Positions 1 to 39,170 of a DNA stretch of 64,000 bases are shown here, one piece after another; position 1 is the first letter of the stretch, and every line of letters begins with the position of its first letter. Source of the stretch: an uncultured Acidobacteriota bacterium (lineage in GTDB: Bacteria; Acidobacteriota; Vicinamibacteria; Fen-336); the NCBI GenBank assembly GCA_963720545.1, contig OY970399.1, positions 2,688,001 through 2,752,000 on the forward strand, given 5' to 3'. Below the pieces are notes generated by a model. It was not told where the DNA came from, searched no databases, and was given only the letters and a program-made list of their open reading frames with translations. The translations under genes and the position numbers were made by a program.

Positions 1-1538
1 CCCCAGTCGCGCGCCGGGATCCAGGCGCCGCTCTTGTTGGCCGGCGGCGGGACGTAGTCGCTCTGGTCCCACTTCGTGCCCTTGCCTGTGAGCACGCGGT
101 CTTCGCTGCCCGAGGCGTACGCCTTGGTGCGGCCGCCGCCGGTGTCGTCCACCACGTCAGCGCCGTCACCGCCCACCGCGCGCACCAGGATGCCGCCGGT
201 GTCGCCCTTGGTGACCACCTTGTCGTTGCCGCCGAACAGCAGCAGCCGGATCTCGTCGGTCTCGTTCTTGTGGAACGTGCGCTTGAAGTACGGATCCTGG
301 CCTTCCGCGCCCAGTGTCACGGTGACGTCGCCCGAAGGCGCGCGCTCGACGTTCGCCACCTCCGCTGCGTCGGTCGCGTAGATGTCCACCTTCTGCGAGA
401 GGAACTTGTAGAACTTCATCGCCTGGTGGTCCACTTCGTCGCGGCGCTGGCGCAGCCCCTTGATGGTGAAGGCGCCGTTTTTCACGAAATATTCGGGCGG
501 CATGCGGCGCGCCGCCTCCTCGATCACCGCATCGGTGATCGAGGCCTTCACCTTCGCCGCCTCTTCGACGAACGCCTCGCGCTCGAGGTCGGCGAGCAGG
601 CGGCGATCCACGTCCCAGCCGTCGAAGGTGAGCCCGTCCATGCTCGAGAAGTCGTCGCTGAAGTTGACGAGCAGCGGCAGCCCCTGGCGGAAGATGCCGA
701 TGACGAAGCCGTCGAACTTCACGTAGGCCTGGTCGCGGTCTTCAGGGATGGGGATGAAACGGTCGTTGCCCGCGATCTTGGCCCAACGCCACTGGTTGCG
801 GTGGCGGTCCCAGTCGCCGATCATCATGTCCACGAGCCGCGCGCGCAGGTAGGCGCGCGAATCGACGCGCACCGCCGGGCTCTCGCGCAGCCGCTGCCAG
901 AGCTCCTCGCCGTCGATATTTTCCTCGGCCGCGACGATGCCCTTGCTGCCGCCGAACTCCTCGATGTCGCCCAGCTGGCCGGCGAATTCCTTCTGGTACT
1001 CGCCGAGCGCCTCGTCGTCGGGCACGATCACGAGGTGCGGATCGTTGTGCACCACGTCCACCGCCTTCAGCAGCGGCGCCACCATGGTGTGGCCGGCGGG
1101 ATGCCCGGACGCCATCTGGTCGGTGACGAACTTGCGGGCAAAGGTTTCGCGCAACTCAACCGGTAGCAGGCCGCTCGGGTCCTTGAGAATCGGGCGGAAA
1201 GTGTAGAGCCGGCCGTCGCCGCCCTTGAACGCGAGGCCGCGGCTCTGGCCGTGGCCGACGATGCGCGTCGGCTTGAGGCCGCCGGCGTAAGTCTGCAGGT
1301 TCAGGACGTCGGCCTTGAAAGGCGTCAGCCACAAGTCGCGGTAGTTGCTGCCGAAGAGGAAGCGGTAGAGGCCGCCCTTCTTGTAGCGAGCACCAGCCAC
1401 CACCGTGCGCGTCTCGCCGCCGGGCGCTGGCGATGCCGCCGCTTCGGGTGCCTGCGGCGCCGCAAAGGCTGCGGTGCCGGCAGGGATGAACGTGACGAAC
1501 GTAAGGACGGCAAGGACGGCCGGAATGATGCGCTTCAT
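1..1538 (-). CDS. Exported protein with N-terminal atypical (PI3/PI4-kinase-like) kinase-fold domain; probably the N-terminal part of a BamA/TamA(Omp85)-family outer-membrane protein; truncated at window edge
   Basis: Not in the ORF track (its stop lies outside the window). Translated by hand from ATG 1538, with GAGG upstream. Signal peptide MKRIIPAVLAVLTFVTFIPAGTAAFA; FGSNYRDLW; Gly-rich GHGQSRGLAF; ARLVDMMIGDWDRHRNQWRW...PEDRDQAYVKFDG. The barrel assignment rests on family recall only. Confidence 0.75.
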   Translation of the reverse strand, partial: MKRIIPAVLAVLTFVTFIPAGTAAFAAPQAPEAAASPAPGGETRTVVAGARYKKGGLYRFLFGSNYRDLWLTPFKADVLNLQTYAGGLKPTRIVGHGQSRGLAFKGGDGRLYTFRPILKDPSGLLPVELRETFARKFVTDQMASGHPAGHTMVAPLLKAVDVVHNDPHLVIVPDDEALGEYQKEFAGQLGDIEEFGGSKGIVAAEENIDGEELWQRLRESPAVRVDSRAYLRARLVDMMIGDWDRHRNQWRWAKIAGNDRFIPIPEDRDQAYVKFDGFVIGIFRQGLPLLVNFSDDFSSMDGLTFDGWDVDRRLLADLEREAFVEEAAKVKASITDAVIEEAARRMPPEYFVKNGAFTIKGLRQRRDEVDHQAMKFYKFLSQKVDIYATDAAEVANVERAPSGDVTVTLGAEGQDPYFKRTFHKNETDEIRLLLFGGNDKVVTKGDTGGILVRAVGGDGADVVDDTGGGRTKAYASGSEDRVLTGKGTKWDQSDYVPPPANKSGAWIPARDW

Positions 1539-1554
1539 AGTGGGCAACCTCTAA

Positions 1555-2727
1555 TCAGTCGATTCGTTCGGCATAGCGTTCGACAGCCTGGCCATCGGCC
1601 TCGACGACGACAGCAGCCAGGCGTCCCCGCCCGTTGCGGGCCATGTCGAGGCGAACATACCCCGGTTCGCCCGAAGCGAAGTGCGTGGCCGGCAGCCGGG
1701 TGGGAATTCGTGTGTGGTGGAAGGCGCCGGCGCCGCTCACGATCAGCCACCTTGCGAGGCCGCCGCCCTCGAGCAGCTGGATGCCGTGCTCGTGGCCGGC
1801 GGCCCAGGCGAACGGCGGATGCTCGCGCAGCACCGGGTTCAGGACCGACAGCATGTGCTCGTAGACGGCTGCCGGCGCGTCCTGCGGATACCAGCCGAGG
1901 GAGCGGCCCGCCGGGATGAGGGAGCCGACGACCGGCAGCGGCAGCCACAGCCAGCCCTTCCAGGCGCGCAGGGGAAAGAGATGATCGCGCATGGTGAAGT
2001 GGCCGCCGTGGCCGCCGCCCGAAACCGGCGGATGATGCGACACCAGGATCACCGGTCGGCGATCCGCGGGAGCGAGTGCCACGCGCAGCGCCGCCTGCAC
2101 CTCGCTGTCATTTGCCGCCGCGCAGGACGATCCGGGATTGCGCGGCTTCTCGCCCTGCTCGATCCACCACTGGGTGTCCAGGGCGACAATGCGCGCGCCA
2201 GGCATGAGATCGTCCTCGACCGTGGGGCCCGGGCACGCGTCTCGCGGCCGGAATCGCACCTGCGGGCGGCCGATCTCCTCGACGTAGTCGGCCTGACGCT
2301 TGACCGTCTGCCAGCCCGGCTCGCGGTCCTCGCCCCAGTCATGGTTCCCCGGGATGAACATGCTGCGGGCGCCCGAAGCCTTGAGCGGCGCCAACTGCGC
2401 GGTGAGGCGGGCGACGGCTTCGGCCCGCGTTGCATCGCCTTCCGGGGGCAGGCCCGCATCGTAGACGTTGTCGCCCAGCACCAGCACCGCGGTTGAAGCA
2501 GGGTTGGCGCGGGCCTCGCGGGCGATCGCGGCGAAGATCGGCGCGACGTTGCGCACCGGCTCGCCGGCATCGCCGACGAAGAGCAGCGTGAACAGGCGCT
2601 CGCCCGCGCCGAGCTGCGGCACGGCGCGGGCAGCGGCCAGCTCGGCGTCGTTGCGGGAATTCTCGGAGCACGCACAGCACGCGGCCAGCGCGAAAGCCAT
2701 GGCAAAGGCGCGAAGCGACGCACGCAC
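1555..2727 (-). CDS. Exported calcineurin-like metallophosphoesterase (purple acid phosphatase-type), probable lipoprotein
   Basis: C-terminal part of ORF 1555..4305. Motifs GDAG, GDNVY, GNHD, VSHH, GHEH. N-terminus ...FALAACCAC is lipobox-like. Start is GTG 2727 or ATG 2700. Confidence 0.85.
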   Translation of the reverse strand: MRASLRAFAMAFALAACCACSENSRNDAELAAARAVPQLGAGERLFTLLFVGDAGEPVRNVAPIFAAIAREARANPASTAVLVLGDNVYDAGLPPEGDATRAEAVARLTAQLAPLKASGARSMFIPGNHDWGEDREPGWQTVKRQADYVEEIGRPQVRFRPRDACPGPTVEDDLMPGARIVALDTQWWIEQGEKPRNPGSSCAAANDSEVQAALRVALAPADRRPVILVSHHPPVSGGGHGGHFTMRDHLFPLRAWKGWLWLPLPVVGSLIPAGRSLGWYPQDAPAAVYEHMLSVLNPVLREHPPFAWAAGHEHGIQLLEGGGLARWLIVSGAGAFHHTRIPTRLPATHFASGEPGYVRLDMARNGRGRLAAVVVEADGQAVERYAERID

Positions 2728-2732
2728 GACCG

Positions 2733-4046
2733 CTAGGCCGCGGCCTTGCTCGTCTCCGCTGCGTTCAGCTTCAGCACCCTGAACGCTAGAAACAGCCACA
2801 GCGCCACGAGCGCGAGGTTCACCACCGCGAAACCGCGGATGCCGAGCCCGAGCTGTGTCGTGCCGACGAACACCAGCACCGCCGCCAACACGTCGCCGGA
2901 ACGCACGAAGAAGGTGTCGATCGCCTGCTTGGCCTTGTACTTTTCCTCGCGGCTCGTCGGCAGCCACAGCAACTGCTTGGCGGTGTTCATCAAGGAATAA
3001 TCGGTGCCGTTCTCGGCGATCTTCGCGAGGCGCACCAGCATCAGGCCGGCGCCCGCCGCCATGATCGAATAGCTGCCGAGCGCCACGATCGGCAGCGCCA
3101 GCAGCACGCCGCGCAGGCCCATGGCCTTGACGAGGCGCGAGGCGACGAACGCCTGCAGCAGTGCCGCGAGCACCGAAGTCCAGAACAGGTAGTCGCCGTA
3201 GAAGCCGCCGATGAAGGCCTTCTTGTCGGCAAGGCTCGCCGCTGCCTCGGTAACCTTGGTGCTCAGCAGGAACTCTCCGGCGGTGTTCACCAGGTTCGTC
3301 ATGATGAGCAGCACGCCTATCGCCAGCAGGTAGGAGCTCTTGAAGACGAGGGCGAACCCGTCGCCCTTCGCGAGCACCGGCTCGGCGGCCGGGGTGCGCT
3401 GCCGCGCCTTCGCCAGGTGGTTCATGAGGTAGTAGAGGCCGAGCGAGACCAGCAGGATCGCGCCGCTCAGCCGCAGCATGAAGTGCAGCGGCTGGCCCAT
3501 CTTGAACAGCTGGCCGGCGATCTTCGCGCCGATCGGGCTGCCGAGCGTGGCGCCGATGGCGATGACGGGGAACAGCCGCTCGCCCATTTCCTTCGTATAG
3601 ATGTCGTTCGCGTAGCTCCAGAACTGCGCGATGATCGAGAGGTTGAAGATCCCGACCCAGATATAGAACACGACGCCGACGAAGCGCACGTCGAGCCTGA
3701 TCGCCACCTCGAACAGGATGATGCAGGCGACGAAGAACAGGTTGAGGGCGACGATGAGGCTGGAGCGCTTCAGGCGCGCGGCAAGCCAGCTGTAGATGGG
3801 GATGAAGGCGATTAGGGCGAGCGCCTGTCCGGCAGAGGCGTAGGTCTTCACCGCGGCGCCGCCGCCGGTGAGGATGAGCGGCTCGCGCACGGTCTTGATG
3901 ATGTAGTAGCCGAGCAGGATGAGGAAGACGTTCGCGAACATCAGCAGCACGCCGACGCCCTCGCCCCCGCGGACGTCGCTGAAGAGGCGCAGGAAACGGT
4001 CGAGGGGGGTGAGCGGGGCCGAGGAGCTTTGATCCTGGTTCGCCAT
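2733..4046 (-). CDS. NTT/TLC (Npt1/Npt2, ATP/ADP translocase) family nucleotide transporter
   Basis: 437 aa, about 12 TM segments; YYIIKTVRE, QFWSYANDIY, RLFPVIAIG, EEKYKAKQAIDTFFVRSGD. Confidence 0.88.
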   Translation of the reverse strand: MANQDQSSSAPLTPLDRFLRLFSDVRGGEGVGVLLMFANVFLILLGYYIIKTVREPLILTGGGAAVKTYASAGQALALIAFIPIYSWLAARLKRSSLIVALNLFFVACIILFEVAIRLDVRFVGVVFYIWVGIFNLSIIAQFWSYANDIYTKEMGERLFPVIAIGATLGSPIGAKIAGQLFKMGQPLHFMLRLSGAILLVSLGLYYLMNHLAKARQRTPAAEPVLAKGDGFALVFKSSYLLAIGVLLIMTNLVNTAGEFLLSTKVTEAAASLADKKAFIGGFYGDYLFWTSVLAALLQAFVASRLVKAMGLRGVLLALPIVALGSYSIMAAGAGLMLVRLAKIAENGTDYSLMNTAKQLLWLPTSREEKYKAKQAIDTFFVRSGDVLAAVLVFVGTTQLGLGIRGFAVVNLALVALWLFLAFRVLKLNAAETSKAAA

Positions 4047-4161
4047 GCGGGTTTTGGTGGCCGGACGATATCACACCCGTCCGGCGCCGCCCGAGACTGC
4101 CTGCAGGTTGGGGGCTACAATCGGCGCCGATATCCCCCCTTGAAAGGGAAGGTCGGCACCC

Positions 4162-5256
4162 ATGAAGGCTTTTCGGGCGCACCTCTTTGTACCCCTTCTT
4201 TTCGTTGCCACCGGCGTCGCTTGTGGCGCCTGTGCCCACCGGGAGCTGAAGCCCGGCGAGGCCTTGACCGAGGAGGCGCGCCTCGAGGCCATCCGGCGGG
4301 CGCACGTCTGGTCGCCTGTGGTCGTCCGCAACGTCAACTTCAGGGTCGGGCCAAGCGACAAGAACAGGCCTGCGCCTGGCCAGTGGATCACCTGCGATTA
4401 CAAGCCCACCGAATCCGGCGGCAAGTCGCCCAAGTTCACCTGCGTCGGCAGCCGCGGCCAGGAGTACAAGGTCAAGTACGGCGACGACAACGCCGAGGTG
4501 ATCGGTGAGGTGCTCGCCTCACGGCTCTTGTGGGGGCTCGGCTTCGGCGCCGACCGCATGTATCCCGTGCGGGTGCGCTGCCGCGGGTGTTCCGCGGACC
4601 CGGCGGAGCACAAGGAACGCGCCGCCGGCACGGCGGTCTTCGACCCGGCGGCGATCGAGTGGCGACTGCCGGGGCGGACGCTCGAGACGCGGCCCGATTC
4701 CGGGTGGAAATGGGACGAGCTCGACGAGATCGGCCCGGGCGCGCCGCCCGGCGAGCGCGCGCACCGCGAAGGCCTCAAGCTGCTGGCGGCGTTCATCCAG
4801 CACACCGACAGCAAGTCCGACAACCAGCGCCTCAGTTGTCCGCCCGGCGCCTCTGTCGGGCGCACCGGCTGCCGCGCGCCTTTGATGATGATCCACGACC
4901 TCGGCCTGACGTTCGGCCGCAGCTCGCTGCTGAACAAGAACGAAAACAGCGTCAGGCTTGCCAGGTGGGCGACGCTGCCGGTGTGGAAGAACCCGGCGAC
5001 CTGCGAGGCCCAGCTCGGCGGATCGCTCACCGGGACCCTGAGCAACCCCGTGATCCGCGAGGAAGGCCGCGCGTTCCTGGCCGGCCTGCTGGCACAGCTG
5101 AGCGACGCGCAGCTTCGCGACCTGTTCGAAATCTCCGGCGTGAAGCATCGACCGGCCGACAGCAAGGATGAGACGGCACCCGCCTCGGTCGAACAGTGGG
5201 TGGCCGCGTTCAAGGACAAGCGGGCCCAGGTGGTGGACCACCGCTGCCCGAACTAG
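4162..5256 (+). CDS. Putative lipoprotein with atypical kinase fold
   Basis: Signal peptide/lipobox (VACGAC); GGKSPKF, YKVKYG, EVIGEV; catalytic-like HTDSKSDNQ; MIHDLG (DFG-like); many Cys residues. Confidence 0.7.
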   Translation: MKAFRAHLFVPLLFVATGVACGACAHRELKPGEALTEEARLEAIRRAHVWSPVVVRNVNFRVGPSDKNRPAPGQWITCDYKPTESGGKSPKFTCVGSRGQEYKVKYGDDNAEVIGEVLASRLLWGLGFGADRMYPVRVRCRGCSADPAEHKERAAGTAVFDPAAIEWRLPGRTLETRPDSGWKWDELDEIGPGAPPGERAHREGLKLLAAFIQHTDSKSDNQRLSCPPGASVGRTGCRAPLMMIHDLGLTFGRSSLLNKNENSVRLARWATLPVWKNPATCEAQLGGSLTGTLSNPVIREEGRAFLAGLLAQLSDAQLRDLFEISGVKHRPADSKDETAPASVEQWVAAFKDKRAQVVDHRCPN

Positions 5257-6384
5257 GACGGCGTCGGCGTCGGTGAGGGCTTCGGCGTCGGCTTCGCCGC
5301 CGGCGGCTTTGCAGTCGATTTCGGTGAGGCCGTCGGAGTCGGCTTCGGGGTCGGCTTCGGCGGTCGGCGGCCCTGGTCCCTCGGGCGTCGAGCGGCCCGG
5401 CGTCCCGACCTTGGGCACCGCCACCTCGACCGGCTTCGCTTCCGGCGACGCGGGCTTGGCCTCGGCGGGCGCGCCCGGCCGATGGATCTCGCCCGAGTCG
5501 ATCGTCTGGCCGGCGCGGTTGATCGTCTGGTAGTAGAGGTCGTTGCCGGCGATTTCCACGAGCATGAAGTGGTAGTCGGCGTCGTACTCCTTCGCCGTGA
5601 TGCCGGAGGCGCGGTTGCCGCTGCGCAGCGAGCCGCCGGCGCCCGAGACGAAGTAAGTGATGTCGCCCTTCTGCGGCTTGGTGCGCTCGTAGAAATGGTC
5701 GTGGCCTGAGAACACCACGCTGACGCTGTTCTTGACGAACAGCGGCTCGAGCACCGCGCGCGACTCGAGCGAGGAGCCGTGCAGCGCGCCCGACGAGTAG
5801 AGCGGATGATGGAAGTAGGCGACCTTCCATTCCGAGTCCGACTCGGCGAGCGTCTTGTCCACCCAGGTGAGCTGCTCCTTGTCGAGGTAGTTGCTGTCTA
5901 GCGCGTAGAAGCGCACGCTGCCCTCGCCCTTCCCTGGCCCGCTCGGTCCGCGGAACGTGTAAAAGCGCTGGCCGTCCATGTTGAACGGCTTGTAGAAGCG
6001 CTGGTTCGGGTTGTCGTGGTTGCCGAGGCTCGCGTAGAACTTCACGCCCTTGTCGAGGAGAGCCTTGTACGGGTCCTCGAACTTGAGCTTCATGTCGGCG
6101 GGACTGTCGGCGCCGTAGATGTTGTCGCCCAGCATGATGACGAACTCAAACGGGAACACCTCGTGGAAGGCGGCCATCTGCGCGCCCACCTCGTACTGCT
6201 CGCGGCGGCCGCGGCCGCTGTCGCCGATCACGCCGAAGCGCACCGAGCCGTCCTTGCGCGGCAGCTTCAGCGCGGTCTTGGCGCTGTCGTTCGACGCCTG
6301 CGAGACCTCGCGCGGCGCCTGCGAGGCAGGGCACTGGCCGAGGCCGAGCGCCAGCAGCAGGGTTAGGAACGCGGCGCCTCTCAA
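5253..6384 (-). CDS. Exported metallophosphoesterase (purple acid phosphatase-type) with Pro/Lys/Thr-rich tail; apparent 1-nt frameshift near 5360
   Basis: TTG start and signal peptide; GDSG, GDNIY, GNHD, YFHH, GHDH. The tail PKPTPKPTPTASPKSTAKPPAAKPTPKPSPTPTPS* lies in a shifted frame and ends at 5253, overlapping the convergent stop (CTAG). Confidence 0.85.
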
Positions 6385-6388
6385 GATC

Positions 6389-7036
6389 TCACTTCGCCGG
6401 CAGCGGGGGAGTGCCGGCCGGCAGGAAGTCGACGATGAGGCTCGTGACCGAATCGAACAGGATCAGGTCGCGCCCGACGAAGCGGTACTGCAGCGGCGCC
6501 GGCAGCACCGGCAGCGTGGCGAGGACGCTTGCCGGCACGGTCGAGAGCGCTGCGCCCGATGGATACTCCGTATTGACGCGTGGCTTCACCGGCACCGACT
6601 CCCCGTCTTTCTGCGGGTTGCCTTCGACCACGGCGCTGCGGGCCGCACCGGTGTCCGGGCCCTGCAGCTCCTTCGCCAGCAGCCGCCTGAACACCGGCTG
6701 CACGGCTGGCGTGAAGATGTCGCCCTGCTTTGCCTGCTGGCGGGCTGCGACGATTGCGGCGGCGAGCGACGTCGTCTTCGCGTCGGCGCCCGCCGCGCTG
6801 TCGGCCCTGGGCGTGCCGAGCTTCGCAGCCTCGCGCGCATGGAGCGCAGCGTACTGCGCGACCGCGTCGCGAAACGCCTTCAGCGCCGCCTGTTCGGCCG
6901 GGCTCATCGGCACCTGCGGGCCCGCCTCGGCCTTTTTCACCTTGTTCGCCACCTTGGCGGCGGTGTCGGGCGGCGGCTGTTGCGCGAGACTACCGGCGAG
7001 AACGGCGAGGCCTAGACAACCTGCGAAGAACCCCAT
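6389..7036 (-). CDS. Exported hypothetical protein
   Basis: Signal peptide; C-terminal LPVLPAPLQYRFVGRDLILFDSVTSLIVDFLP is reminiscent of RcnB/DUF1236-type small periplasmic domains; operonic spacing. Confidence 0.7.
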   Translation of the reverse strand: MGFFAGCLGLAVLAGSLAQQPPPDTAAKVANKVKKAEAGPQVPMSPAEQAALKAFRDAVAQYAALHAREAAKLGTPRADSAAGADAKTTSLAAAIVAARQQAKQGDIFTPAVQPVFRRLLAKELQGPDTGAARSAVVEGNPQKDGESVPVKPRVNTEYPSGAALSTVPASVLATLPVLPAPLQYRFVGRDLILFDSVTSLIVDFLPAGTPPLPAK

Positions 7037-7049
7037 GGCGCTGCTCCAG

Positions 7050-7961
7050 TCATTTGCCGCTTGCCGGCTTTGCTTTCACCTTACGCCGCGGCTTGCCCTT
7101 TTTGCCAGCGACCGCCACCCCGTGCATGGCGCCGAGCGCCGCCGCCCAGTCCTCCTCGAAAATCGCCGCCATCTTCGCCACCACCTTGCGGTCCTTGACG
7201 ATGACGCCGACCTCGCGACGGTGGTCGAGCTCCAGCTTGCGCAGGCCCTGGCTGCCCATGAACGCCTGCTTGCCGTCGCGGATCACGGCGCGCAGGTGCA
7301 GCCGCACGCCGGGAATCTTGAGTGCCGTGAGTCCGCCGCCCGCCTTGCCCAGGATGCGCACGCTGACGCCGGCAGCGATGCGCTCCTTGATGATGCGGAT
7401 CATGCGCGTGTCGGTGAGCTTGGGGACGTGATAGATGAGCAGCTCCTTGCGCGCGCCCTTCAGGTACTCGGCCAGCCGCTCGCGCGAGTTGACCGGGCTC
7501 ACGAGGAACGACTTGGAGCCGGCCGCGTAGTCCTGGCGCAGCGAATCGGCCTCGAACAGCTTGAGCGCCTCTGCCACCAGCTCGCGCTTCTTGGAAACGA
7601 CCGCGAAGCTGCGGCTCTTCAGGTCGAGCGCCGTGTAGTTGAAGGCCAGGATGTACACGCTCTTGCGGTCCACCACCATCACCTTGCTGTGGTAGCGGAC
7701 CAGGTCGGTGTCGGTGCGGCGCACGCCGGCGCCGGTCTTGAGCAGCGCCTGCTCGAGGCGGCGCAGCTTCTTCTCGCCGCCGCGGTTGGTGTGCGCGATC
7801 AGGGTGCGCACCGCGACACCGCGGCCGGCGGCAACGGCGAGCAACTCGGCGATGTCGCGGCGGTCGAGGCGGAAGATGCCGACGTCGAGACTGGTCTTCG
7901 CCTTGCGGATCGCGCTCAGGATTGGCTCGATGCCGTCGTCGGGCTGGATGATGAGCTTCAT
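7050..7961 (-). CDS. Phospholipase D-superfamily protein (two HKD-type repeats, second one variant)
   Basis: Starts MKLIIQPDDG, with ATGA overlap to the upstream gene; YHSKVMVVD and LHLRAVIRD...GSQGL...RREVG. Confidence 0.85.
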   Translation of the reverse strand: MKLIIQPDDGIEPILSAIRKAKTSLDVGIFRLDRRDIAELLAVAAGRGVAVRTLIAHTNRGGEKKLRRLEQALLKTGAGVRRTDTDLVRYHSKVMVVDRKSVYILAFNYTALDLKSRSFAVVSKKRELVAEALKLFEADSLRQDYAAGSKSFLVSPVNSRERLAEYLKGARKELLIYHVPKLTDTRMIRIIKERIAAGVSVRILGKAGGGLTALKIPGVRLHLRAVIRDGKQAFMGSQGLRKLELDHRREVGVIVKDRKVVAKMAAIFEEDWAAALGAMHGVAVAGKKGKPRRKVKAKPASGK

Positions 7962-8671
7962 TTGCCTGGCTTCTTTTCCGCCCAGGCCACTTCCACGGCT
8001 TCGCCCTGGCGCAGCGCCACAATCATCTCGGAGAGCTGGTCCGTGCCCTTGCCCTGCGGCACTTCGGCGGAGTACGTCATCTCCTTTTCGGTGGAGGCGC
8101 GCAACTCGAACTTCACGCCGTGCTTCTTCAGCAGCGACTCGAGCGCCGGCTTGAGCGCCGCAGGGTCGCGGGCTGCGATCTTCAGGTCGAAGGAAGCCGT
8201 CGGCCACGGCGCACGCCACTCGAGGATGCGCAGCACGCCGATGATGAAGAGGGTGCCGGCCGTGGCGAGATAGATGAGCCCGACGCCGGAGGCGAGGCCG
8301 ACGGCGAGGCAGGCGAGCAGCACGCTGGCGTCCTTCGGGTCGTCGATCTTGGCGCGGTAACGCACCAGCCCGGCGACGCCGGCGATCGCGAAGGCGCGCG
8401 CCAGGCTGGCGCCGACGATCAGCATCACCAGCGAGCCGACGATCGCCAGCATGATCTGCGTCTGGATGACGGTCGCGCCGCGCGGCGGACCGCCGGCCGG
8501 CCGAGGCCGGAAGGCGAGCACCGCCCCCAGCGCTCCCGCCACCAGCAGGCACAGGAGCGAGTGGCCGAGGTCGGCAAACGTGAAATCGGCGATCTGGTTG
8601 ATCGCCGTCAGCGAGCGCGGCGTCTCCTCGCCCGCGGGCGCAACCGCCAGCAGCACGAGCAAAGAATCCAT
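7958..8671 (-). CDS. DUF4956 / MgtC-SapB-like membrane protein
   Basis: About 4-5 TM segments; SLARAFAIAGVAGLVRYRAKIDDPKDA is the typical DUF4956 motif. Confidence 0.8.
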   Translation of the reverse strand: MDSLLVLLAVAPAGEETPRSLTAINQIADFTFADLGHSLLCLLVAGALGAVLAFRPRPAGGPPRGATVIQTQIMLAIVGSLVMLIVGASLARAFAIAGVAGLVRYRAKIDDPKDASVLLACLAVGLASGVGLIYLATAGTLFIIGVLRILEWRAPWPTASFDLKIAARDPAALKPALESLLKKHGVKFELRASTEKEMTYSAEVPQGKGTDQLSEMIVALRQGEAVEVAWAEKKPGK

Positions 8672-8749
8672 GTTCTAGAGGCCCTCCGCGGCCAGTCCGG
8701 CAGGCCGAGAATCTATCACTCAGTCTGCCGCCTACCGAGGGGGGCCGCC

Positions 8750-9760
8750 TCAGCCGGCTTTCGACATGCCGGCTATGGATACCGCGCCGCTCGCGCGCTC
8801 CACCCCGGCGCGCATCTTGGAGATGCGGATGACGTCGGTCGCGATCACCTGCAGGTAGTCGCTCGCCATCTCGAAATTGTCCTCGAACACGTCGAGCAAC
8901 GTCTCCGCCACGGTGTGCAGCGCCGTCACCTCGGTGCGCGCCGTGGCGTCGTAGAAGCGCGGCGTCTCGGAGATGCTCTCGATCGAGCCGAGCGGGCCGC
9001 CGGGGCCGAGGGTGAAGTCGATCGCATCCTCGTCGGAGCGGCAGCGCACAGCGCCGTCGATGATGACGAAGATGCCGCCCGAGGCGTCGCCCTTCTTCCA
9101 GATCTCGGTGCCGGCATCGAAGCGCACCTCGTTCATGCCGCGCGACAGCTCGGCAAGCGCGTTGATGCTGCTGCGCTTGAAGATCGGCGCCTTGCGCAGG
9201 AACGCGATGCGCTCGACGAAGTCCATCTCCTTGCGCGGCGCCGGCATGTCGAAGCTGCTGAGGTCGGTGAACACCCAGGGGTTCTCGATGAGCAGCGCGA
9301 GCAGTCGCTTCGAGCTGCCCTTGATCATCCCGTAGGTGAGGTTGAAACGGTCCTCGAGCACCTCCATGAGCGCCTCGGCGTCGATGTCGAGGCAGTGCAC
9401 GTCGGTGGCGGCGATCGCCTCGAGTCCCTGCGGGTCCTTGGCCATGTATTGCAGCCAGCCGACGGCGTCGCCAGGCCCAAGACTGGCGAGCTGCAGGTCC
9501 TCGGTGCGGATCTCGACCTGGCCTTCGATGATGAGGTGGATGGTGTCCACCATCTCGCCCATGTGCCGCATGACGGCGCCCTTGGGGAAGTAGCGCTCGC
9601 TGCACAGCTCGGCGATCACCGCGAGGTCGGTGGAGCGCGCACCGCCGGTGGCGTCGAACATCCGCAGGTACAGCACCCGCTCCAGGAGCGACGTGGAACG
9701 CACGCCGTCGACGGTTTCCCTGCGGCGAGAGCGCAGCCTCGGCTTCGACTTACCCGGCAC
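8750..9760 (-). CDS. Tandem cyclic-nucleotide-binding-domain protein (no HTH)
   Basis: Two repeats (LERVLYLR..F...FPKGAV; VERIAFLRKAPIF...FDAGTEIWKKGD...PRFYDATA). GTG 9760 has AAGGA upstream; the alternative start is ATG 9802. Confidence 0.85.
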   Translation of the reverse strand: MPGKSKPRLRSRRRETVDGVRSTSLLERVLYLRMFDATGGARSTDLAVIAELCSERYFPKGAVMRHMGEMVDTIHLIIEGQVEIRTEDLQLASLGPGDAVGWLQYMAKDPQGLEAIAATDVHCLDIDAEALMEVLEDRFNLTYGMIKGSSKRLLALLIENPWVFTDLSSFDMPAPRKEMDFVERIAFLRKAPIFKRSSINALAELSRGMNEVRFDAGTEIWKKGDASGGIFVIIDGAVRCRSDEDAIDFTLGPGGPLGSIESISETPRFYDATARTEVTALHTVAETLLDVFEDNFEMASDYLQVIATDVIRISKMRAGVERASGAVSIAGMSKAG

Positions 9761-12503
9761 CGGCGGTCCTTTCGGCACCGGGGATGCTGCCGGCGGCCGC
9801 ATCCAGCGCGCGCAGCGCCCGCTCGAACACCTGGCGGACGAAGAAACCGGTCTTGTGCCGGTCGAAGGCGCGCAGGCGTTCGGCGAACTGTACGAGGCCC
9901 AGCTCGCCGATATGGCCGGCGGCCAGCGAGCGGATGGTTTCGCCGGGCTGCTCCAGCAGCTCGCCGAGCAGCTGCTCGTAAGTCGGCGGTGTCCGCGTCA
10001 CCGGCCCCTGCACCGCCAGCCGCTCCGCATCCGGCACGTCGTCGATGAGGCCGATGACCAGGTCGCGCAGCGGTGGCTGCAGCACGTTCGCGGTCAGCTC
10101 GCGCGAGGTGGCGCGGATCTTGGCGCTGGTGCTGCCGAGGCCTCGGTGGATGGGCTTGAAGTTCTCGCGCGTGAAGCGCAGCGACAGCAGGCGGAACAGG
10201 CGCTCGATGGCGTGCGTCTCCTTGTCGCGCAGCAGCGCCACCAGCAGCTCGTGGCCGGGAGTGAGGCGCGCCGGCACTTCGGCGGCGCCGTTCTCGAGGA
10301 TCGCGCGCCATTCGATGAGGCGGTAGGTGGCGGCGATGGTGCGCTCGATGGCCTGGTCGAGCACCGAGTCGTCGAAGTTGATGCCGGGGTTCTCGGTGGC
10401 GATACGGCCGAGGCCGCGGATGATCTTGAAGCGCACCAGGCCGTCGTTCTCGTCGAGCAGCCGCTCCTGCAGCACCTGCAGGGCCGCCTCCGGCTCGAAC
10501 AGCACCAGCGAACGCGGCACGTGGCGGCGGATCTCGTGCGGCAGGTGCTCGTCCTTCAGCGACTCGGCCAGGAAATGCAGCGCGCGCTCGCCCTGCGCCA
10601 CCAGCGCCGCGCGCGCCGCCGGCCGCACCTCGTGGCTCACCAGGAACGACATCAGCGGCGGCAGGAAGGCGTCGTCGCGCACCGCGCCCATGGCGCGCGC
10701 CACCTCGATCTGCACCTCTTCCTCGGAGGAGTCTCCGAGGAGCGTCAACGCCGGGACGAAATCGGGCGAGGGCTGGCGCGTGATGGCGCGCGCCAGCACC
10801 AGCCGGGTGCGCGCCGAGGCGGCGCAGGCGATGCCTTCGATCGCCTCGCGGTCCTCGTCGGTGCCGAGGCCGCGCGCCACCATCACCACCAGCGCCGTGG
10901 CCCGCACCAGCGGATCGACGTCGCCCGTGGAGGCGCGCAGCGAGGCTTCGTCGGGCGCCACCGCGTTGCGGGCGCGCAGCGCGGCGGCGCGCACCTCCGG
11001 GTCGGGGTGGCCGATGAGGCGGTCGGCGACCGGATAAAAGTCGTCGCGCTTCGACAGTTCGAAGAGCTCCAGGGTGCGCAGCACGATCGCGGACGAAGGA
11101 TGGAAGAGGAGCAGCGCCGGCACCAGCCGCACCCGGCCCTCTTCCGCCAGCAGGTCGAGGGCAGCGAGCACCTCGCTGTCCTCGGCGCTGTTGAGCGAGG
11201 AGAAGAGCGACTCCAGCGAGCCCAGGTCGAGCTCCGGCATGTCCACCGAGCTGTGCATCGAACCCTCGCGCAGCGCGTCGCGGAACAAGTTGAGGTAGTG
11301 CTTCTTGATGTCGGCGGCGAACGCGATCCAGACGATGCACAAGCCGCCGGCCGCCGAGGCCAGCACGTAGTCGCCGCGCCGCAGGCCGATGTCGCTGAGG
11401 ATCGCGAGCGAGGCGATCGCCTGGCCGGCGCGCTGCGTGACGCCGTCGATGAACGGCTTGACCCGCGAGCGCAGCGCGTCGGGGATGGGGACGAACAGCA
11501 GCTCCATCGCGGTCTTGTTGAGCGAGAAGCGGAAGGCGCCGTCGGCGCCCTTCATGATCAGCGCCGCCGCCAGGCCACCGCCGAACGCGACCCCGGCGGA
11601 CCCGAGCGCCAGCAGGCTCGGCAGCACCCACAGCGCGCGGTGCAACCCGAGCAGGCGCATGAGGATGCCGGCCAGCAGGAACTGGGTGAGGAGCCCCGCG
11701 ATGTTGAGCCCCATATAAAAGGTGGCGAAGAACTCGGCGAGGTTCTCCTTCGGGATGGCGCGCGCCACCTCGCTCTTGAAGACGTAGTCGGCGACCGTGA
11801 TGGCGACCGTCGAAACCAGCACCAGCACCGTAAGGTTCTTGAGGTAGGCGTTGCCCTGGATGAGGCGCAGCGGCTCGCGCAGAGCGGCCAGGCCGCGCCC
11901 GCCGGGAGCGTCGATGGTGGTGCGCTGCAGGTAGAGGCCCGGGCCGAGCGCCGTCAGCACCATCAACAGCGCGGAAGTCGGCAAGAGCGTGTCGGCGGGG
12001 AACGAGCCGGCGACGATGCGGGCAATGCCCGAGCCGGCGACGGCACCCATGACGCTGCCGGTCGCGACCACGCGGAACACGCGCTTCGCCTGCGTCACGG
12101 TGAAGCGGTCGGACATGATCACCCAGAACTCGACCGCGGCGAGCGTGCCGAAGACGCCGGTCCAGATGTAGAGGCCGTAGACGCGGAAGTGGCCCTGGTA
12201 GCCGACGCCGGCGAGATAGAACGCCAGGGTGACGGCGGCGGCGAACAGCAGCAGGAAGCTGAGGCTGAACTTCACCGCGATCCGGCCGAGGCGCTTCAGC
12301 GGCGAGTCGGAGATGAGCATCGCGATGCCGGCGATCGCGAGGTACATGAACGGTAGCTGCGAAGCCGGCAGCCGCGACAGGAACAATGCGTCGCGCGCGG
12401 TCTCGAGGATCGTGTGGCTTGCGAGGATGCCGAACAGGCCGAAAAAGGACAAAAGCGCGGCGCTGCGCTCGTCGGCACGGATGTCGCCCAGAAAACGCGC
12501 CAT
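9750..12503 (-). CDS. NTT/MFS-type nucleotide transporter fused to HEAT repeats
   Basis: N-terminal domain of about 12 TM segments (ETARDALFLSRL, QAKRVF, RVKPFIDG), followed by HEAT-like repeats (DPEVRAAALRA, DPLVRATAL, EVRPAARAAL). Confidence 0.85.
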   Translation of the reverse strand: MARFLGDIRADERSAALLSFFGLFGILASHTILETARDALFLSRLPASQLPFMYLAIAGIAMLISDSPLKRLGRIAVKFSLSFLLLFAAAVTLAFYLAGVGYQGHFRVYGLYIWTGVFGTLAAVEFWVIMSDRFTVTQAKRVFRVVATGSVMGAVAGSGIARIVAGSFPADTLLPTSALLMVLTALGPGLYLQRTTIDAPGGRGLAALREPLRLIQGNAYLKNLTVLVLVSTVAITVADYVFKSEVARAIPKENLAEFFATFYMGLNIAGLLTQFLLAGILMRLLGLHRALWVLPSLLALGSAGVAFGGGLAAALIMKGADGAFRFSLNKTAMELLFVPIPDALRSRVKPFIDGVTQRAGQAIASLAILSDIGLRRGDYVLASAAGGLCIVWIAFAADIKKHYLNLFRDALREGSMHSSVDMPELDLGSLESLFSSLNSAEDSEVLAALDLLAEEGRVRLVPALLLFHPSSAIVLRTLELFELSKRDDFYPVADRLIGHPDPEVRAAALRARNAVAPDEASLRASTGDVDPLVRATALVVMVARGLGTDEDREAIEGIACAASARTRLVLARAITRQPSPDFVPALTLLGDSSEEEVQIEVARAMGAVRDDAFLPPLMSFLVSHEVRPAARAALVAQGERALHFLAESLKDEHLPHEIRRHVPRSLVLFEPEAALQVLQERLLDENDGLVRFKIIRGLGRIATENPGINFDDSVLDQAIERTIAATYRLIEWRAILENGAAEVPARLTPGHELLVALLRDKETHAIERLFRLLSLRFTRENFKPIHRGLGSTSAKIRATSRELTANVLQPPLRDLVIGLIDDVPDAERLAVQGPVTRTPPTYEQLLGELLEQPGETIRSLAAGHIGELGLVQFAERLRAFDRHKTGFFVRQVFERALRALDAAAGSIPGAERTAGAG

Positions 12504-12521: not shown

Positions 12522-12545
12522 CGGAGTTAACGCCGAATTAACCGG
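12522..12545 (+). promoter_or_regulatory. Putative Pho-box-like direct repeat (TTAAC x2, 11-bp period) between the divergent NTT-HEAT and porin genes
   Basis: cggagTTAACgccgaaTTAACcgg, with TTAAC at 12527 and 12538; a near-identical motif precedes pstS. Confidence 0.55.
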
Positions 12546-12607
12546 GCCGCCGCCGCGCCGTTACTTTGGGCCGATAGCTTGCCGCTCGAGAAAATCCCAA
12601 GGAGGGA

Positions 12608-14033
12608 ATGAGTGAAGCTCATCCGCCTCACCGCTTCTTCGCCGGAATCTTGTTGTTCGCCGCAGTTGTGCTGCCTGCGCCGGCGCGGCGCAAGGCATGT
12701 ACTACAGGAGGTAGAGAAGGATGGGCGGATCTACGTGTTCGACATGACGGCCAGCCGAGGCGAGCCTTCCAGAAAACCGGCGGGGCCGAGCTTGGTGTCG
12801 CGATCACCCGCCCGGGCGCTCGGTCCGGACGGCGAGACGGTGGTCTTCGACAGCGAGCAGGCGATCAACTACTACAACTTCAAGCACGGCATCGCCGAAG
12901 TGGTTGAAAAGCCGAAAACGCCCAAGGTCGACATCGTCTACCGCGACGGCCGCACCACGGTCGACTTCGACAACGGCCAGATCCAGTTCCAGAACCGCCT
13001 GCAACTGCGCTATACGCACCAGTTGCCGCCGTCGGAGACACAGCTTCCGGGCACCTCGAACAAGGGTGACTCGAAGGGCTCGTTCCGCATCCGCCGCTAC
13101 GAGCCGCAGTTCCAGGGCTGGATCTACAAGAAGTGGATCGGCTACAAGCTCGAGTTCGCCTTCCAGGACCTGCAGAACGACGCGGTCGCCGGCGGCGCCA
13201 TCAACGACGCCTACTTCACCTACGACTTCGGCAAGGGCACGCGCAGCTTCCGCGCGCAGTTCGGCCAGTTCAAGGTGCCGTTCGGGCGCCAGGAACTGAC
13301 CTCGTCCTTCAACCAGCAGTTCGTCGACCGCTCGATCATCGCCGGCGAGTATGAGCGCGGCCGCGACCTGGGCCTGCAGCTCGACGGTCTCCTCGGCGGC
13401 GGCAAGCTCGAGTGGCGCGTCGGCCTCTTCAACGGCAACCAGCGCAACAAGACCCTGAACGACAACAACAAGTTCCAATACGACGCGCGGGTCACCTGGC
13501 TGCCCTGGGGCGAGCCCGGCTACTCCGAGAGCGACTTCGAATCCACCGACAAGCCGCTGTTCGCACTGGCCGGCCAGTGGGAGCTGAACGACTTCGCGAA
13601 CACCGTGGCGCCGGTGGTGCCGACGGGCGCTCCCGCGGGCACGCCGGCGGTGATTCCCTCGGTCACGTCCTGCCCGTGCGGCAGCGGCGCGCTGAAGCGG
13701 ACCACTTACGGCGTCGATGCCGTCCTCAAGTACAAGCGGCTGTTCCTGATGGGCGCCTTCTACAACCGCAAGATCGACCCCATTGTCAGCACCATCGAGA
13801 ACTTCAAGTCGAACGGCTACCACACACAGGCGGGCTACCTGCTCGACTCGGCGCGTCACTGGGAAGTGGCCGTGCGCTACGCGAGCTTCGACCCGACCGA
13901 CAAGACCTCGAGCAACGACCGCACCGAACTGGGCTTTGGCCTCAACTACTTCTACAACAAGCACAACGCCAAGATTCAGTCCGACTACCGGATCCTCGAG
14001 AACAAGTCGACGAAGCTGAAGGACAATTCGTGA
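12608..14033 (+). CDS. Phosphate-selective porin (OprO/OprP family); 5' and 3' ends disturbed by apparent indels
   Basis: GGAGG RBS before ATG 12608; QLRY, FRIRR, GQFKVPFGRQELTSS, FVDRS, GRDLG, GLNYFYNKHNAKIQSDY; directly upstream of pstS. The signal peptide is in a different frame from the body. Confidence 0.8.
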
Positions 14034-14077
14034 AGTGCGCGCTTCAAACTCTAGTCTGGATCTGCGTAGGACGCCGT

Positions 14078-14114
14078 CGGAGTTAACACGGATTTAACAG
14101 CACGCATTAACCGG
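14078..14114 (+). promoter_or_regulatory. Putative Pho-box-like repeats upstream of pstS
   Basis: cggagTTAACacggatTTAACagcacgcaTTAACcgg; TTAAC at 14083, 14094 and 14107. Confidence 0.6.
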
Positions 14115-14168
14115 CCCGTTCCTTCGGGCCGGTACCTTTTGATCAAAGACATGGAAAGAGGCAAGCAC

Positions 14169-15132
14169 ATGAAGAGCACCGCAGCGGCGCTCCTGGCATT
14201 CGCATCCCTGGCGGGCCTGGCGCTCGCCCAGGCGGTCAAGGTGGAAGACAGCGATCACCGGGTACGCGAAGACCTCGGGCGTCTCCGGCAACATCAACAG
14301 CGTCGGCTCCGACACGATGAACAACCTGATGACGCTGTGGGCCGAGTCGTTCCTCAAGATGTACCCGAACGTCAAGATCCAGGTGGAGGGCAAGGGCTCG
14401 TCGACGGCGCCGCCGGCGCTCATCACCGGCACCGCGCAGTTCGGCCCGATGTCGCGCGCGATGCGCGCCACCGAGATCGACCAGTTCGAGAAGAAGTACG
14501 GTTACAAGCCGACGCAGATCCGCGCCTGCTACGACGCGCTCGCGGTCTACGTGAACAAGGACAACCCGCTCGAGAAGCTCGACCTCGCGCAGGTGGACGC
14601 GGTGTTCTCGAAGAGCCACCGCCGCGGCGGCAAGGCGGTCGCGACCTGGGGCCAGCTGGGGCTCACCGGCGACTGGGCCAACCGCCCCATCAGCCTCTAC
14701 GGCCGCAACTCGGCGTCCGGCACCTACGGCTTCTTCAAGGAGCACGTGCTGCAGAACGGCGACTACAAGGACCAGGTGAAGGAGCAGCCGGGTTCGGCAT
14801 CGGTCGTCCAGGGCGTCACCGAGGACCGCTTCGGCATGGGCTACAGCGGCATCGGCTACAAGACCTCGGGCGTCAAGGCCGTGCCGCTCGCGGAAAAGGC
14901 CGGCGGCTACTACTCGTCGGGCAGCTACGAGGACGTGAAGACCGACAAGTACCCGCTGCACCGCTTCCTCTACATCTACGTCAACCGCGCGCCCGGCAAG
15001 CCGCTCGATCCGGTGGTGCGCGAGTACCTGAAGCTGGTGCTCTCGAAGGAAGGCCAGGAGGTCGTCGTGAAGGACGGCTACCTGCCCCTGCCCGCCGAGA
15101 TCGTGACGCAGGAACTGGCGAAGATCGAGTAG
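14169..15132 (+). CDS. pstS: Phosphate ABC transporter substrate-binding protein (frameshift near 14245)
   Basis: Signal peptide from ATG 14169. The body (GSDTMNNL, EGKGSSTAPPAL, GRNSASGTYGFF) is in the frame of ORF 14317..15132. Confidence 0.9.
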
Positions 15133-15213
15133 GCGCCGAGACCGAAATAGCAACCAAGACCGTGGCCAGCACTGGCGACGACGCCGCGAACCTTTGCAAG
15201 ATCCGCCGCGCGC

Positions 15214-19103: not shown

Positions 19104-19127
19104 CGGCGTTTTTTGGTGAGATGTCGG

Positions 19128-19997
<870 letters not shown>

Positions 19998-20030
19998 TAT
20001 CACAATAGCGCGCCAGGGGAAGAAGAGAAG

Positions 20031-20711
20031 ATGGAACGACAGCACTTCGAAGAAGAGCTCGAGAAGCTGAAGCAGACGCTCCTGCACATGGGCGCGATCG
20101 TCGAGGACCACGTGCAGCGCTCGGTGCTGGCACTCATGGAGCGGCGCGAGGACCTGGCGACGGTGGTCATCGACACCGACAGGGAAATCAACGAGCTGCA
20201 CATCGAGGTCGACGACCGCTGCCTGAAGCTGCTGGCGCTGCAGCAGCCGATCGCCAAGGACCTGCGGCTCATCACCTCGGCGATGAAGATCAACTCCGAC
20301 CTGGAGCGCATCGGCGACCAGGCGGTGAACATCGCCGAGAACGTGCTCAAGATCCTGCCGCACCCGCCGCTGCGGCCGGTGATCGACATCCCGCGCATGG
20401 CGAGCCTGGCGCAGGGCATGACCCGCGACGCGCTCGACTCGTTCGTCGACCGCGACGTGGTGCTGGCGCGCAAGGTGCTGGCGCAGGACGACGAGGTCGA
20501 CCAGCTGAAGGACCAGGTGTTCCGGGTGCTGCTCACGCACATGATGGCCGACCCCGGCACCATCCAGCGAGCGCTGCCGCTGATCCTCATCAGCCGCAAC
20601 CTCGAGCGCATCGCCGACCACGCTACCAACATCGCCGAAGACGTGATCTTCTTCGTCGACGCGCGCGACGTGCGCCACCATCACGACGAAGCGCCGGCGG
20701 GTGAACGGTGA
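20031..20711 (+). CDS. phoU: Phosphate signalling complex protein
   Basis: QQPIAKDLR, DLERIGDQA, LERIADHATNIAE. Confidence 0.95.
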   Translation: MERQHFEEELEKLKQTLLHMGAIVEDHVQRSVLALMERREDLATVVIDTDREINELHIEVDDRCLKLLALQQPIAKDLRLITSAMKINSDLERIGDQAVNIAENVLKILPHPPLRPVIDIPRMASLAQGMTRDALDSFVDRDVVLARKVLAQDDEVDQLKDQVFRVLLTHMMADPGTIQRALPLILISRNLERIADHATNIAEDVIFFVDARDVRHHHDEAPAGER

Positions 20712-39152: not shown

Positions 39153-39170
39153 CGGCTGCGCGGTCCGTTC

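Follow-up and report, generated by a model that had tools for sequence, protein, structure and literature searches.

Two separately inherited gene modules pair exported kinase-fold proteins with phosphoesterases and inner-membrane partners in an Acidobacteriota locus

Genes for CotH, a polyphosphate polymerase and DUF4956 are in print as a conserved group (10.1101/768473), with such sets known also from 10.1101/2024.04.20.589940, and NTT-HEAT fusions with a cNBD gene directly behind them are described in the main text of PMC5381601 as widespread in free-living bacteria and uncharacterized. The route of ATP into the periplasm is treated as an open question in the accessible text of a review (PMC7432876). 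Here, we analyze a stretch of 64,000 nucleotides (nt) from an uncultured Acidobacteriota bacterium (hereafter, the window; contig positions 2688001-2752000), whose genome is a single contig of 4.09 Mb that is 94.8% complete. Ten adjacent genes at the left end of the window encode two kinase-fold proteins (K1 and K2), two metallophosphoesterases (MPP1 and MPP2), two NTT-family proteins (NTT1 and NTT2), a tandem cNMP-binding protein, a PLD-fold enzyme (PLD), a DUF4956 protein and an exported protein (EXP). The original prediction read these genes as a single phosphate-responsive system in which NTT carriers export ATP to exported kinases. We find that they are two modules, each inherited separately, and that module B lies inside module A, where it parts the cNMP gene from NTT1. 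The parts belong to known families; their joining appears to be new.

The families first proposed for the ten adjacent genes hold: besides the kinases, there are two Metallophos proteins, two TLC/NTT proteins, one tandem cNMP_binding protein, one PLDc_2 protein, one DUF4956 protein and an exported protein without a Pfam family (Table 1). Read on the minus strand from 12503, the order is NTT2, cNMP, DUF4956, PLD, EXP and MPP2, followed by K2 on the plus strand and then, again in minus orientation, by NTT1, MPP1 and K1. Because K2 is on the plus strand, the ten-gene block is not one co-directional unit.

The neighbors of K2 define module B. We kept 78 K2 loci from 170 relatives in genome contigs (29 of the 78 shorter than 15 kb), and the closest are labeled Vicinamibacteria or Acidobacteriota. 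MPP2 was present in 26 of these loci, EXP in 22, PLD in 19 and DUF4956 in 14, in varying order and orientation, and all four partners occurred together in 12. By comparison, an NTT-like gene was present in only two of the 78, and the K1 kinase, MPP1, pstS and the porin were found in none of them. Among 121 genomes of the class, 24 besides the host carry K2; a DUF4956 gene is found no more than 10 kb from it in 10 of the 24, and a listed NTT in two. The association of PLD with DUF4956 is also close, with DUF4956 near PLD in 15 of 20 PLD loci and nearly abutting it in 12; of six PLD loci found without K2, two contain DUF4956 and one contains PhoU-MPP2-PLD-K2. An EXP-K2 fusion exists as well (P0245). 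Since K2, MPP2, EXP, PLD and DUF4956 form a set that recurs without NTT, a single ten-gene system is not supported, and the neighborhood analysis bears out only the part of the original prediction that links NTT1 to exported kinases above chance.

That second linkage defines module A. In the host's family (f1), at least 12 of the 26 K1-bearing genomes have NTT1 no more than 10 kb from K1, compared with 3% under simulated random placement; the count is a lower bound, given that a further 79 NTT matches fall outside those listed. Among 76 metagenome K1 loci kept from 440 relatives, NTT1 was found in 10 (including seven of the 29 loci of at least 8 kb), NTT-HEAT in six to seven, MPP1 in six and cNMP in three. 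In 40 genome K1 loci picked from 75 listed matches, NTT1 was found in 10 and DUF4956 in eight to nine. NTT-HEAT, cNMP, NTT1 and K1 are contiguous in four loci (L133, L155, L162 and L164, the last three being close kin), and their order is the order in the window once module B is removed. Approached from the carrier, 20 NTT1 loci of genomes that lack K1 include 11 with K2 or a third kinase family, K3, at a distance of 10 kb or less. Of a further 20 NTT1 copies, taken from the family and order of the host and in 18 cases picked away from K1, six are accompanied by K1 or K3. K3 is an exported-type kinase family of about 550 amino acids (aa), encoded between a POTRA-less Omp85 gene and NTT1 in 18 loci (L211:7509-9245, L209, L208, L215, L218 and others) and fused to a barrel frame in L214. 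It is a remote homologue of K2 (HHalign 98%, E 1e-13) and was not found in the host genome. NTT1 thus accompanies a kinase plus Omp85, either fused (K1) or split (K3), and rarely K2, far above chance.

A different partner appears to take the place of NTT in family f4, where 12 of 24 genomes have K1 and the same 12 have DUF4956, within about 3 kb of K1 in 11 genomes and at 9.5 kb in one. No NTT was found in the 24 genomes with an NTT1 query, nor with the TLC family in the four searched that way. The pairing of K1 with DUF4956 in f4 suggests that exported kinases can have either NTT or DUF4956 as their partner in the inner membrane. We built a K1 tree of 61 rows, leaving out 48 of 109 (unlabeled loci under 12 kb). 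Its 22 NTT-linked rows are scattered and imply at least seven changes, and the window is the only row with both NTT and DUF4956. The window K1 falls outside the clade of DUF4956-linked K1 proteins, which indicates that the DUF4956 gene of the window belongs with K2. In four f4 loci (L186, L187, L195 and L196), genes for K1-Omp85, DUF4956, a propeller protein and a metallophosphoesterase stand in a row without a polymerase gene.

Table 1. Coordinates of the module genes and repeats, in window positions
Feature	Module	Coordinates	Strand	Description	Basis
K1	A	1..1538	-	Signal peptide, atypical kinase domain, beta-rich linker and Omp85 barrel	Structure model and Omp85 match
MPP1	A	1555..2727	-	Exported, probably lipoprotein, calcineurin-like phosphoesterase	Metallophos E 8.9e-8
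NTT1	A	2733..4046	-	Single-domain NTT/TLC carrier with divergent binding site	TLC E 2.8e-16
K2	B	4162..5256	+	Lipoprotein (C24) atypical kinase of CtkA/PI4KII/CotH/Fam20 fold with several invariant Cys	Structure model
MPP2	B	5253..6384	-	Exported purple-acid-phosphatase-like metallophosphoesterase with Pro-rich tail	Metallophos E 3.3e-15
EXP	B	6389..7036	-	Exported protein	No Pfam family
PLD	B	7050..7961	-	PLD-fold cytoplasmic enzyme with two half-domains, HxK then HxR, plus LDxRxE	PLDc_2
DUF4956	B	7958..8671	-	MgtC-like inner-membrane protein	PF16316 around cut-off
cNMP	A	8750..9750	-	Tandem cNMP-binding-domain protein	cNMP_binding E 2.4e-25, two stretches
NTT2	A	9750..12503	-	NTT-HEAT fusion	HEAT_2 E 5.6e-19; TLC E 3.9e-4
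Pho-box-like direct repeat		12526..12542	.	11-bp spacing; about 70 nt 5' of porin start, 23 nt from NTT2 start
Second repeat copy		14082..14098	.	5' of pstS	Pattern match

The block was first described as divergent from porin-pstSCAB across a Pho-box-like repeat. The repeat itself is real: TTAA-N7-TTAA has four sites in the 4.09 Mb genome, beyond chance, two of which are at 12527 before the porin and at 14083 before pstS, and the first of these has a third in-register half-site at 12559. The name Pho box rests on the 11-bp spacing and the position, and the repeat differs from the Pho-box consensus. Among relatives, it precedes pstS in seven of 20, and the strict repeat occurs seven times in 0.28 Mb of pstS loci, compared with three occurrences in module loci totaling 3.3 Mb. 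Because it is kept with pstS loci and not with module loci, the repeat tracks porin-pstS rather than this block. Genes of module A are divergent from porin-pstS in one of 20 relatives (G047), about half of the loci having too little upstream DNA, and we found no pstS, porin or PhoU in the 194 K1 and K2 loci. These data do not establish the proposed phosphate-responsive circuit; phosphate control of the block is possible. In the window, genes of phosphate metabolism form a hub at 12612-21445, 26882-30630 and 38163-39821, with porin O/P, pstSCAB, phoU and a PhoB-like regulator; ppx-like and ppk1 genes; and pit with a PhoU/DUF47-like gene (names other than porin, pstS and ppk1 are read from the sequence).

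We therefore consider it very unlikely that the ten genes form one circuit under phosphate control, with both kinases fed by ATP that the NTTs export, given the scarcity of NTT-like genes near K2, the unique position of the window in the K1 tree, the distribution of the repeat and the altered ATP-binding residues of NTT1 described below. Some loci do fit such a circuit. The modules also meet in G117, where PLD-DUF4956-K2 lies 8 kb from NTT-HEAT-cNMP-NTT1; K1 stands alongside K2-DUF4956 in G050 and G041; MPP1..cNMP-NTT-HEAT is the arrangement divergent from porin-pstS in G047; and the repeat in the window lies close to the start of NTT2.

Both kinase folds named in the original prediction were recovered by AlphaFold2 modeling and structure searches, which place K1 and K2 among PI4K/CotH/Fam20-type proteins with a conserved catalytic Asp. 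The K2 model (predicted local distance difference test [pLDDT] 88.5) matches CtkA best (Z 12.3, root-mean-square deviation [rmsd] 4.0, 224 aligned), followed by PI4KIIa (11.4), CotH (10.6) and Fam20C (10.5), and all 50 listed rows of the search are kinase-fold proteins. Among 150 distant representatives, K105 is conserved in 132/140, E112 in 128/140, D216 in 144/147, N or Q221 in 143/145 and D246 in 138/138; by motif position rather than superposition, these would be the beta-3 Lys, the alpha-C Glu, the catalytic Asp, the +5 Asn and the metal-binding Asp. K1 has 874 aa (2686914-2689538 on the contig), with the last 1086 nt of its gene to the left of the window. In its model (pLDDT 89, searched whole), residues ~33-381 have the kinase fold, and the matches to this region are PI4KIIa (Z 15.1, rmsd 4.2, 254 aligned), CotH (Z 14.4) and CtkA (13.1). 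R115, K119, D244 and Q249 are conserved in 90/90 aligned homologues, and D267 and D269 in 89/89. These models confirm for both proteins the fold of the atypical PI3K/PI4K-CotH-Fam20-HipA kinase clade. The CotH Pfam family (PF08757) matches neither at E 0.1, and a PDB search found no sequence relative of K2, of DUF4956 or of the kinase domain of K1. The profiles of K1 and K2 do not align (HHalign 0.1%), so they are separate families and not recent paralogues.

K1 is not a soluble kinase, since it ends (residues ~514-874) in a 16-stranded Omp85 barrel with strands from 514 to 871 in the model. The barrel matches TamA (Z 25.2, rmsd 2.9, 288 aligned) and, below the family cut-off, NF047779 (E 4e-20). 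MPP1 matches the N-terminal third (residues 31-352) of a 1226-aa Fulvitalea protein (32% identity, E 2e-54), and MPP1 and K1 together align end to end with this single chain (32% and 31%). From this alignment, MPP1 plus K1 is a split form of the Bacteroidota Omp85 'Metallo' protein, encoded in the host genome by two genes rather than as PF00149 and Omp85 in one chain, and the Bacteroidota protein hides a PI4K/CotH-fold kinase domain in its center. On the Fulvitalea plasmid (2730-10496), the fused MPP-kinase-Omp85 gene is divergent from two others, one of the Pycsar effector family and one for an adenylate/guanylate cyclase. No annotated NTT or DUF4956 gene was found within 8 kb of K1 in three annotated Bacteroidota plasmids (from six plasmid matches, four of which were opened). 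Recurrent neighbors in the 116 K1 loci are Hanks-type Ser/Thr kinases (at least 14 loci), PAP2 (at least 12), phytase/SdiA-like propellers (at least six) and PPK2 (at least five), all lower bounds because antisense frames were picked in places. PstB-like ABC matches near K1 and K2 were set aside as generic ATPases.

We judged export by a hydrophobicity and lipobox heuristic applied to homologues, with internal and cytoplasmic controls. A hydrophobic N-terminus was present in 116 of 120 K2 homologues (internal control 2/120), 106 of 120 K1 homologues (control 5), 22 of 25 for MPP2, 20 of 21 for EXP and five of five for MPP1, and a lipobox in 72 of the 120 K2 homologues (control 0). Export signals were found in none of 20 PLD and none of seven cNMP homologues. 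Kinases and phosphatases thus look exported, as had been proposed: K1, K2, MPP1, MPP2 and EXP probably lie beyond the cytoplasm, in which PLD and the cNMP protein probably stay. The kinases could conceivably act further out, facing outward or being released (K1 through its own barrel) and working on other cells or on outside ATP, with the carriers as mere passengers. CtkA is the top fold match of K2, and the enzyme domains of Omp85 fusions were once proposed, in the main text of PMC4104836, to be translocated. We regard this as hardly likely at all, because the enzyme domain of PlpD is reported in the text available to us to be periplasmic (PMC11116518), K2 carries a lipobox, and the carriers are linked to kinases far above chance.

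NTT1 is a clear member of the TLC family (59.8 bits, cut-off 21), and NTT2, at 19.8 bits, is below the cut-off but shares 28% identity with NTT1 (E 8e-24). NTT2 and the cNMP gene directly after it form the known pair of an NTT-HEAT fusion and a cNBD gene. NTT1 matches structures 9j3n and 9j3j. Residues K71, E161, E301 and K443 of the 9j3j chain correspond to K155, E245, E385 and K527 of AtNTT1 by one offset of 84 that fits all four, E385 being the fourth key residue. At these positions, NTT1 has Ser71, an invariant Gly132, Asn254 or Glu258 (the alignment is ambiguous) and an invariant Asp385. In the text available from PMC3306366, K527E abolishes ATP binding by AtNTT1, and ADP binding is lost when K155 is mutated. 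NTT1 therefore has replacements at three positions on which the plant carrier depends (K155, E245 and K527), which argues against ATP export and makes canonical ATP/ADP exchange by NTT1, as originally assumed for both carriers, doubtful. Other basic residues are invariant (R54, R157, K342, K369, K373 and R382, which like D385 do not vary among 37 aligned sequences), so the substrate is likely anionic and probably a nucleotide.

The divergent binding site would also suit phosphate scavenging, in which the phosphoesterases free phosphate outside the cell, the NTTs import nucleotides or breakdown products, and the kinase folds bind or hydrolyze nucleotides or run backwards. Characterized NTTs import, according to the main text of PMC5381601; the window holds a phosphate hub; PAP2, PPK2 and phytase-like propeller genes recur near K1; and PhoU abuts MPP2-PLD-K2 in G142. 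Scavenging is nevertheless unlikely. Phosphatases alone would do for it, it does not account for the association of NTT1 with three families of kinases that retain the catalytic Asp, and pstS, the porin and PhoU were not found in the K1 and K2 loci.

DUF4956 scores 29.8 bits alone, compared with a Pfam cut-off of 30.6, and 30.9 with its frame neighbors. The PLD-fold enzyme is collinear with the core of the host's own PPK1, and HxR and LDxRxE are common to both and missing from the host's other PLD protein. R31, H91/K93, H222/R224 and LDxRxE are invariant or nearly so among 19 PLD sequences. ESM Atlas assigns PLDc_2, and 14-86% of members also match PPK C-terminal families, which we use as a lead only. 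Given these PPK1-type catalytic motifs, PLD is a candidate polyphosphate enzyme, and we do not class it as a PPK1. The VTC polymerase (PF09359) was not found in the host genome, which is 94.8% complete; the control matched in 3/14.

PLD scores best with phospholipases, and this raises the alternative that the donor is lipid-borne: K1 and K2 would phosphorylate envelope lipids, PLD would handle phospholipid, and DUF4956 and NTT would move head groups or lipid-linked phosphate, with no ATP or polyphosphate crossing the membrane. PI4KIIa as the top fold match of K1 agrees with this, as do the fusions of K2 to membrane PAP2 (four of 13 long representatives scanned), the Hymenobacter plasmids on which K1 follows an undecaprenyl-diphosphate phosphatase gene or lies among PAP2 genes, and PlpD, an Omp85 protein with a periplasmic lipid-related enzyme domain in the text available from PMC11116518. 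We nevertheless find a lipid-borne donor improbable. K2 keeps the Lys/Glu/Asp set, and the second PLD motif is HxR, not HxK. To our knowledge, kinase-fold enzymes of the clade of K1 and K2 use nucleotide donors. A lipid substrate fits donor supply from the cytoplasm equally well, the donor alone being different; a lipid target for the kinases is plausible because of the PI4KIIa match, the K2-PAP2 fusions and the periplasmic enzyme domain of PlpD.

The reading that we prefer, to which we give about even chances, is that each module combines a donor supply, an exported kinase and a reversing exported phosphatase acting on the envelope. The common plan would be an exported PI4K/CotH/Fam20-type kinase that receives its phosphoryl donor from a unit in the inner membrane and whose action an exported phosphoesterase reverses. 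In module A, NTT1 would swap cytoplasmic nucleotide for spent nucleotide, NTT-HEAT would be regulated via the cNMP protein, the K1 kinase domain would sit in the periplasm below its Omp85 barrel and act on an outer-membrane lipid, glycan or protein, and MPP1 would take the phosphate off again. ATP passing through NTT1 is our tentative choice of donor here, and a doubtful one. In module B, PLD would act at the cytoplasmic face of DUF4956, replacing the VTC polymerase of DUF4956-CotH sets; the phosphoryl donor, most likely polyphosphate, would be handed to the lipoprotein kinase K2; MPP2 would reverse K2; and EXP would be a partner or substrate. That polyphosphate passes through DUF4956 is a proposal that we make with equal reserve. 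More broadly, the modules may represent a widespread, hitherto undescribed class of diderm envelope phosphorylation with interchangeable supplies, outward NTTs giving nucleoside triphosphates to Omp85-anchored kinases and DUF4956 with VTC or a stripped PPK1 core giving polyphosphate, both in one locus here; we think this generalization somewhat unlikely to hold.

Several observations weigh against donor-fed phosphorylation as the common role. None of the four partner genes is present in 49 of the 78 K2 loci, no module gene is present in three of the six PLD loci found without K2, and K1, K2 and K3 are absent from 23 of 40 NTT1 loci. NTT-like genes are common in any case (79 of 121 class genomes). 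In the K1 tree, 26 of 61 rows have neither NTT nor DUF4956 in the locus, and the 12 DUF4956-linked rows form one supported clade with two changes, so the alternation of partners may reflect one or two events. The DUF4956-K1 sets of f4 and f3 have no polymerase alongside (VTC in 0/5 genomes; PPK1 unlinked). In the host genome, neither a second K1-Omp85 (70% identical, 1199119-1201788) nor a second K2 (36%, 1733127-1734125) has module genes nearby. K1 has Arg at the beta-3 Lys position and Gln for the catalytic-loop (+5) Asn, and its alpha-C Glu was not identified. Host-genome profile scores (generic PLD 27.0 compared with PPK1 20.4 bits) and the best PDB matches (7e0m, E 2e-16, compared with PPK 9uuh, E 3e-4) put the PLD enzyme closer to generic PLDs and nucleases than PPK1 is. 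It also falls below the cut-off of the PPK Pfam family (PF13090, 21.7 compared with 25.8 bits), and at 303 aa it is without the PPK1 N-terminal and head domains.

Besides the PAP2 fusions (P0246, P0253, P0256 and P0382), further K2 fusions among P0304 and P0328 involve a subtilase (one) and an unassigned hydrophobic N-terminal domain. Genome G101 has three tandem K2 copies adjoining DUF4956 (C495:28060-31430), and a Bifidobacterium-labeled contig (L042), possibly mis-binned, carries module B genes with 35-57% identity to those of the host. An ESM Atlas cluster name that would make EXP a member of the chorismate mutase family, without a common Pfam family, was not accepted.

The gene arrangement is not a chimera, since independent contigs bridge the module junctions at 2610-2914, 3889-4239, 8515-8877 and 9218-10092; no single independent contig covering the whole block was found among the contigs from other runs. 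One-base indels, likely assembly errors, break MPP2 (5361), pstS (14253) and probably the porin N-terminus (about 12640-12720). Contigs from two other runs are without the inserted base at 5361, and the extra base at 14253 is likewise missing from other-run contigs. The insertion at 5361 accounts for the apparent read-through of MPP2 into K2, the stop in the shifted frame being at 5253-5255. We rejected the frames 4519-6384 and 1555-4305 as read-through artifacts. Two starts are uncertain, that of the cNMP protein, whose open frame extends to 9802, and that of MPP1, at about 2727 or at the ATG at 2700. The PLD start and the DUF4956 stop overlap by 4 nt.

The two conserved sets suggest, and do not prove, dedicated powering of phosphorylation outside the cytoplasm. 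The locus offers expressible candidates, namely two kinases and the phosphatases that go with them, a carrier, and a membrane protein alongside a putative polyphosphate enzyme. As far as the literature available to us goes, these bear on three questions: periplasmic ATP, the NTTs of free-living bacteria, and the donor of secreted CotH-like kinases in non-sporulating bacteria. We found no literature joining these parts in open-access main texts, and the supplements of PMC5381601 and PMC4104836 could list neighbors.

The Omp85 'Metallo' subfamily (Heinz and Lithgow 2014, PMC4104836) resembles MPP1 and K1 in combining PF00149 with an Omp85 barrel, but here the protein is split into two genes, and the main text of that paper, in which PF00149 is called a metalloprotease, does not contain the word kinase; a kinase-fold domain within this subfamily goes unmentioned there. 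The Riemerella MPPE/OMP85 was rejected as a parallel, the two being separate proteins in the text available from PMC13595192. NTT2 and the cNMP gene have the same arrangement as the NTT-HEAT and cNBD pairs of Major, Embley and Williams (2017, PMC5381601), for which ATP uptake or transfer is proposed and no kinase or Omp85 neighbor is named in the main text, whereas in this locus the pair is linked to another NTT and to a kinase-Omp85. Like the ATP/ADP carriers of plastids and parasites (AtNTT1, 9j3j; chlamydial NTT1, 9j3n), NTT1 is a TLC-family protein with basic residues in both halves; unlike them, it has Ser, Gly and Asp at K155, E245 and K527, belongs to a free-living host, and would export rather than import.

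Fam20C works in the secretory pathway, fed by an ATP carrier of the endoplasmic reticulum and Golgi. It offers an analogy only, as a noncytosolic kinase of the same fold clade (Z 10.5) that needs a donor carrier; it is eukaryotic, its carrier is from an unrelated family, and we claim no membership. PLD resembles PPK1 in having two PLD-like domains in C1-C2 order and shares HxK, HxR and LDxRxE with the host PPK1, but it is shorter, with no N-terminal or head domain, falls below the Pfam cut-offs, and is outscored by generic PLDs. The closest parallel to module B is the set of CotH-VTC-DUF4956 genes in Gram-positive pel loci, where, in the reports as far as available, a secreted CotH-clade kinase is likewise encoded beside DUF4956 and a cytoplasmic polyphosphate-type enzyme, and where function is also untested. 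In contrast to those sets, no pel genes were seen here, K2 has no CotH Pfam match, an MPP2-type phosphatase and EXP are added, and, in a host in which we found no VTC, the enzyme coupled to DUF4956 is PLD/PPK1-core-like.

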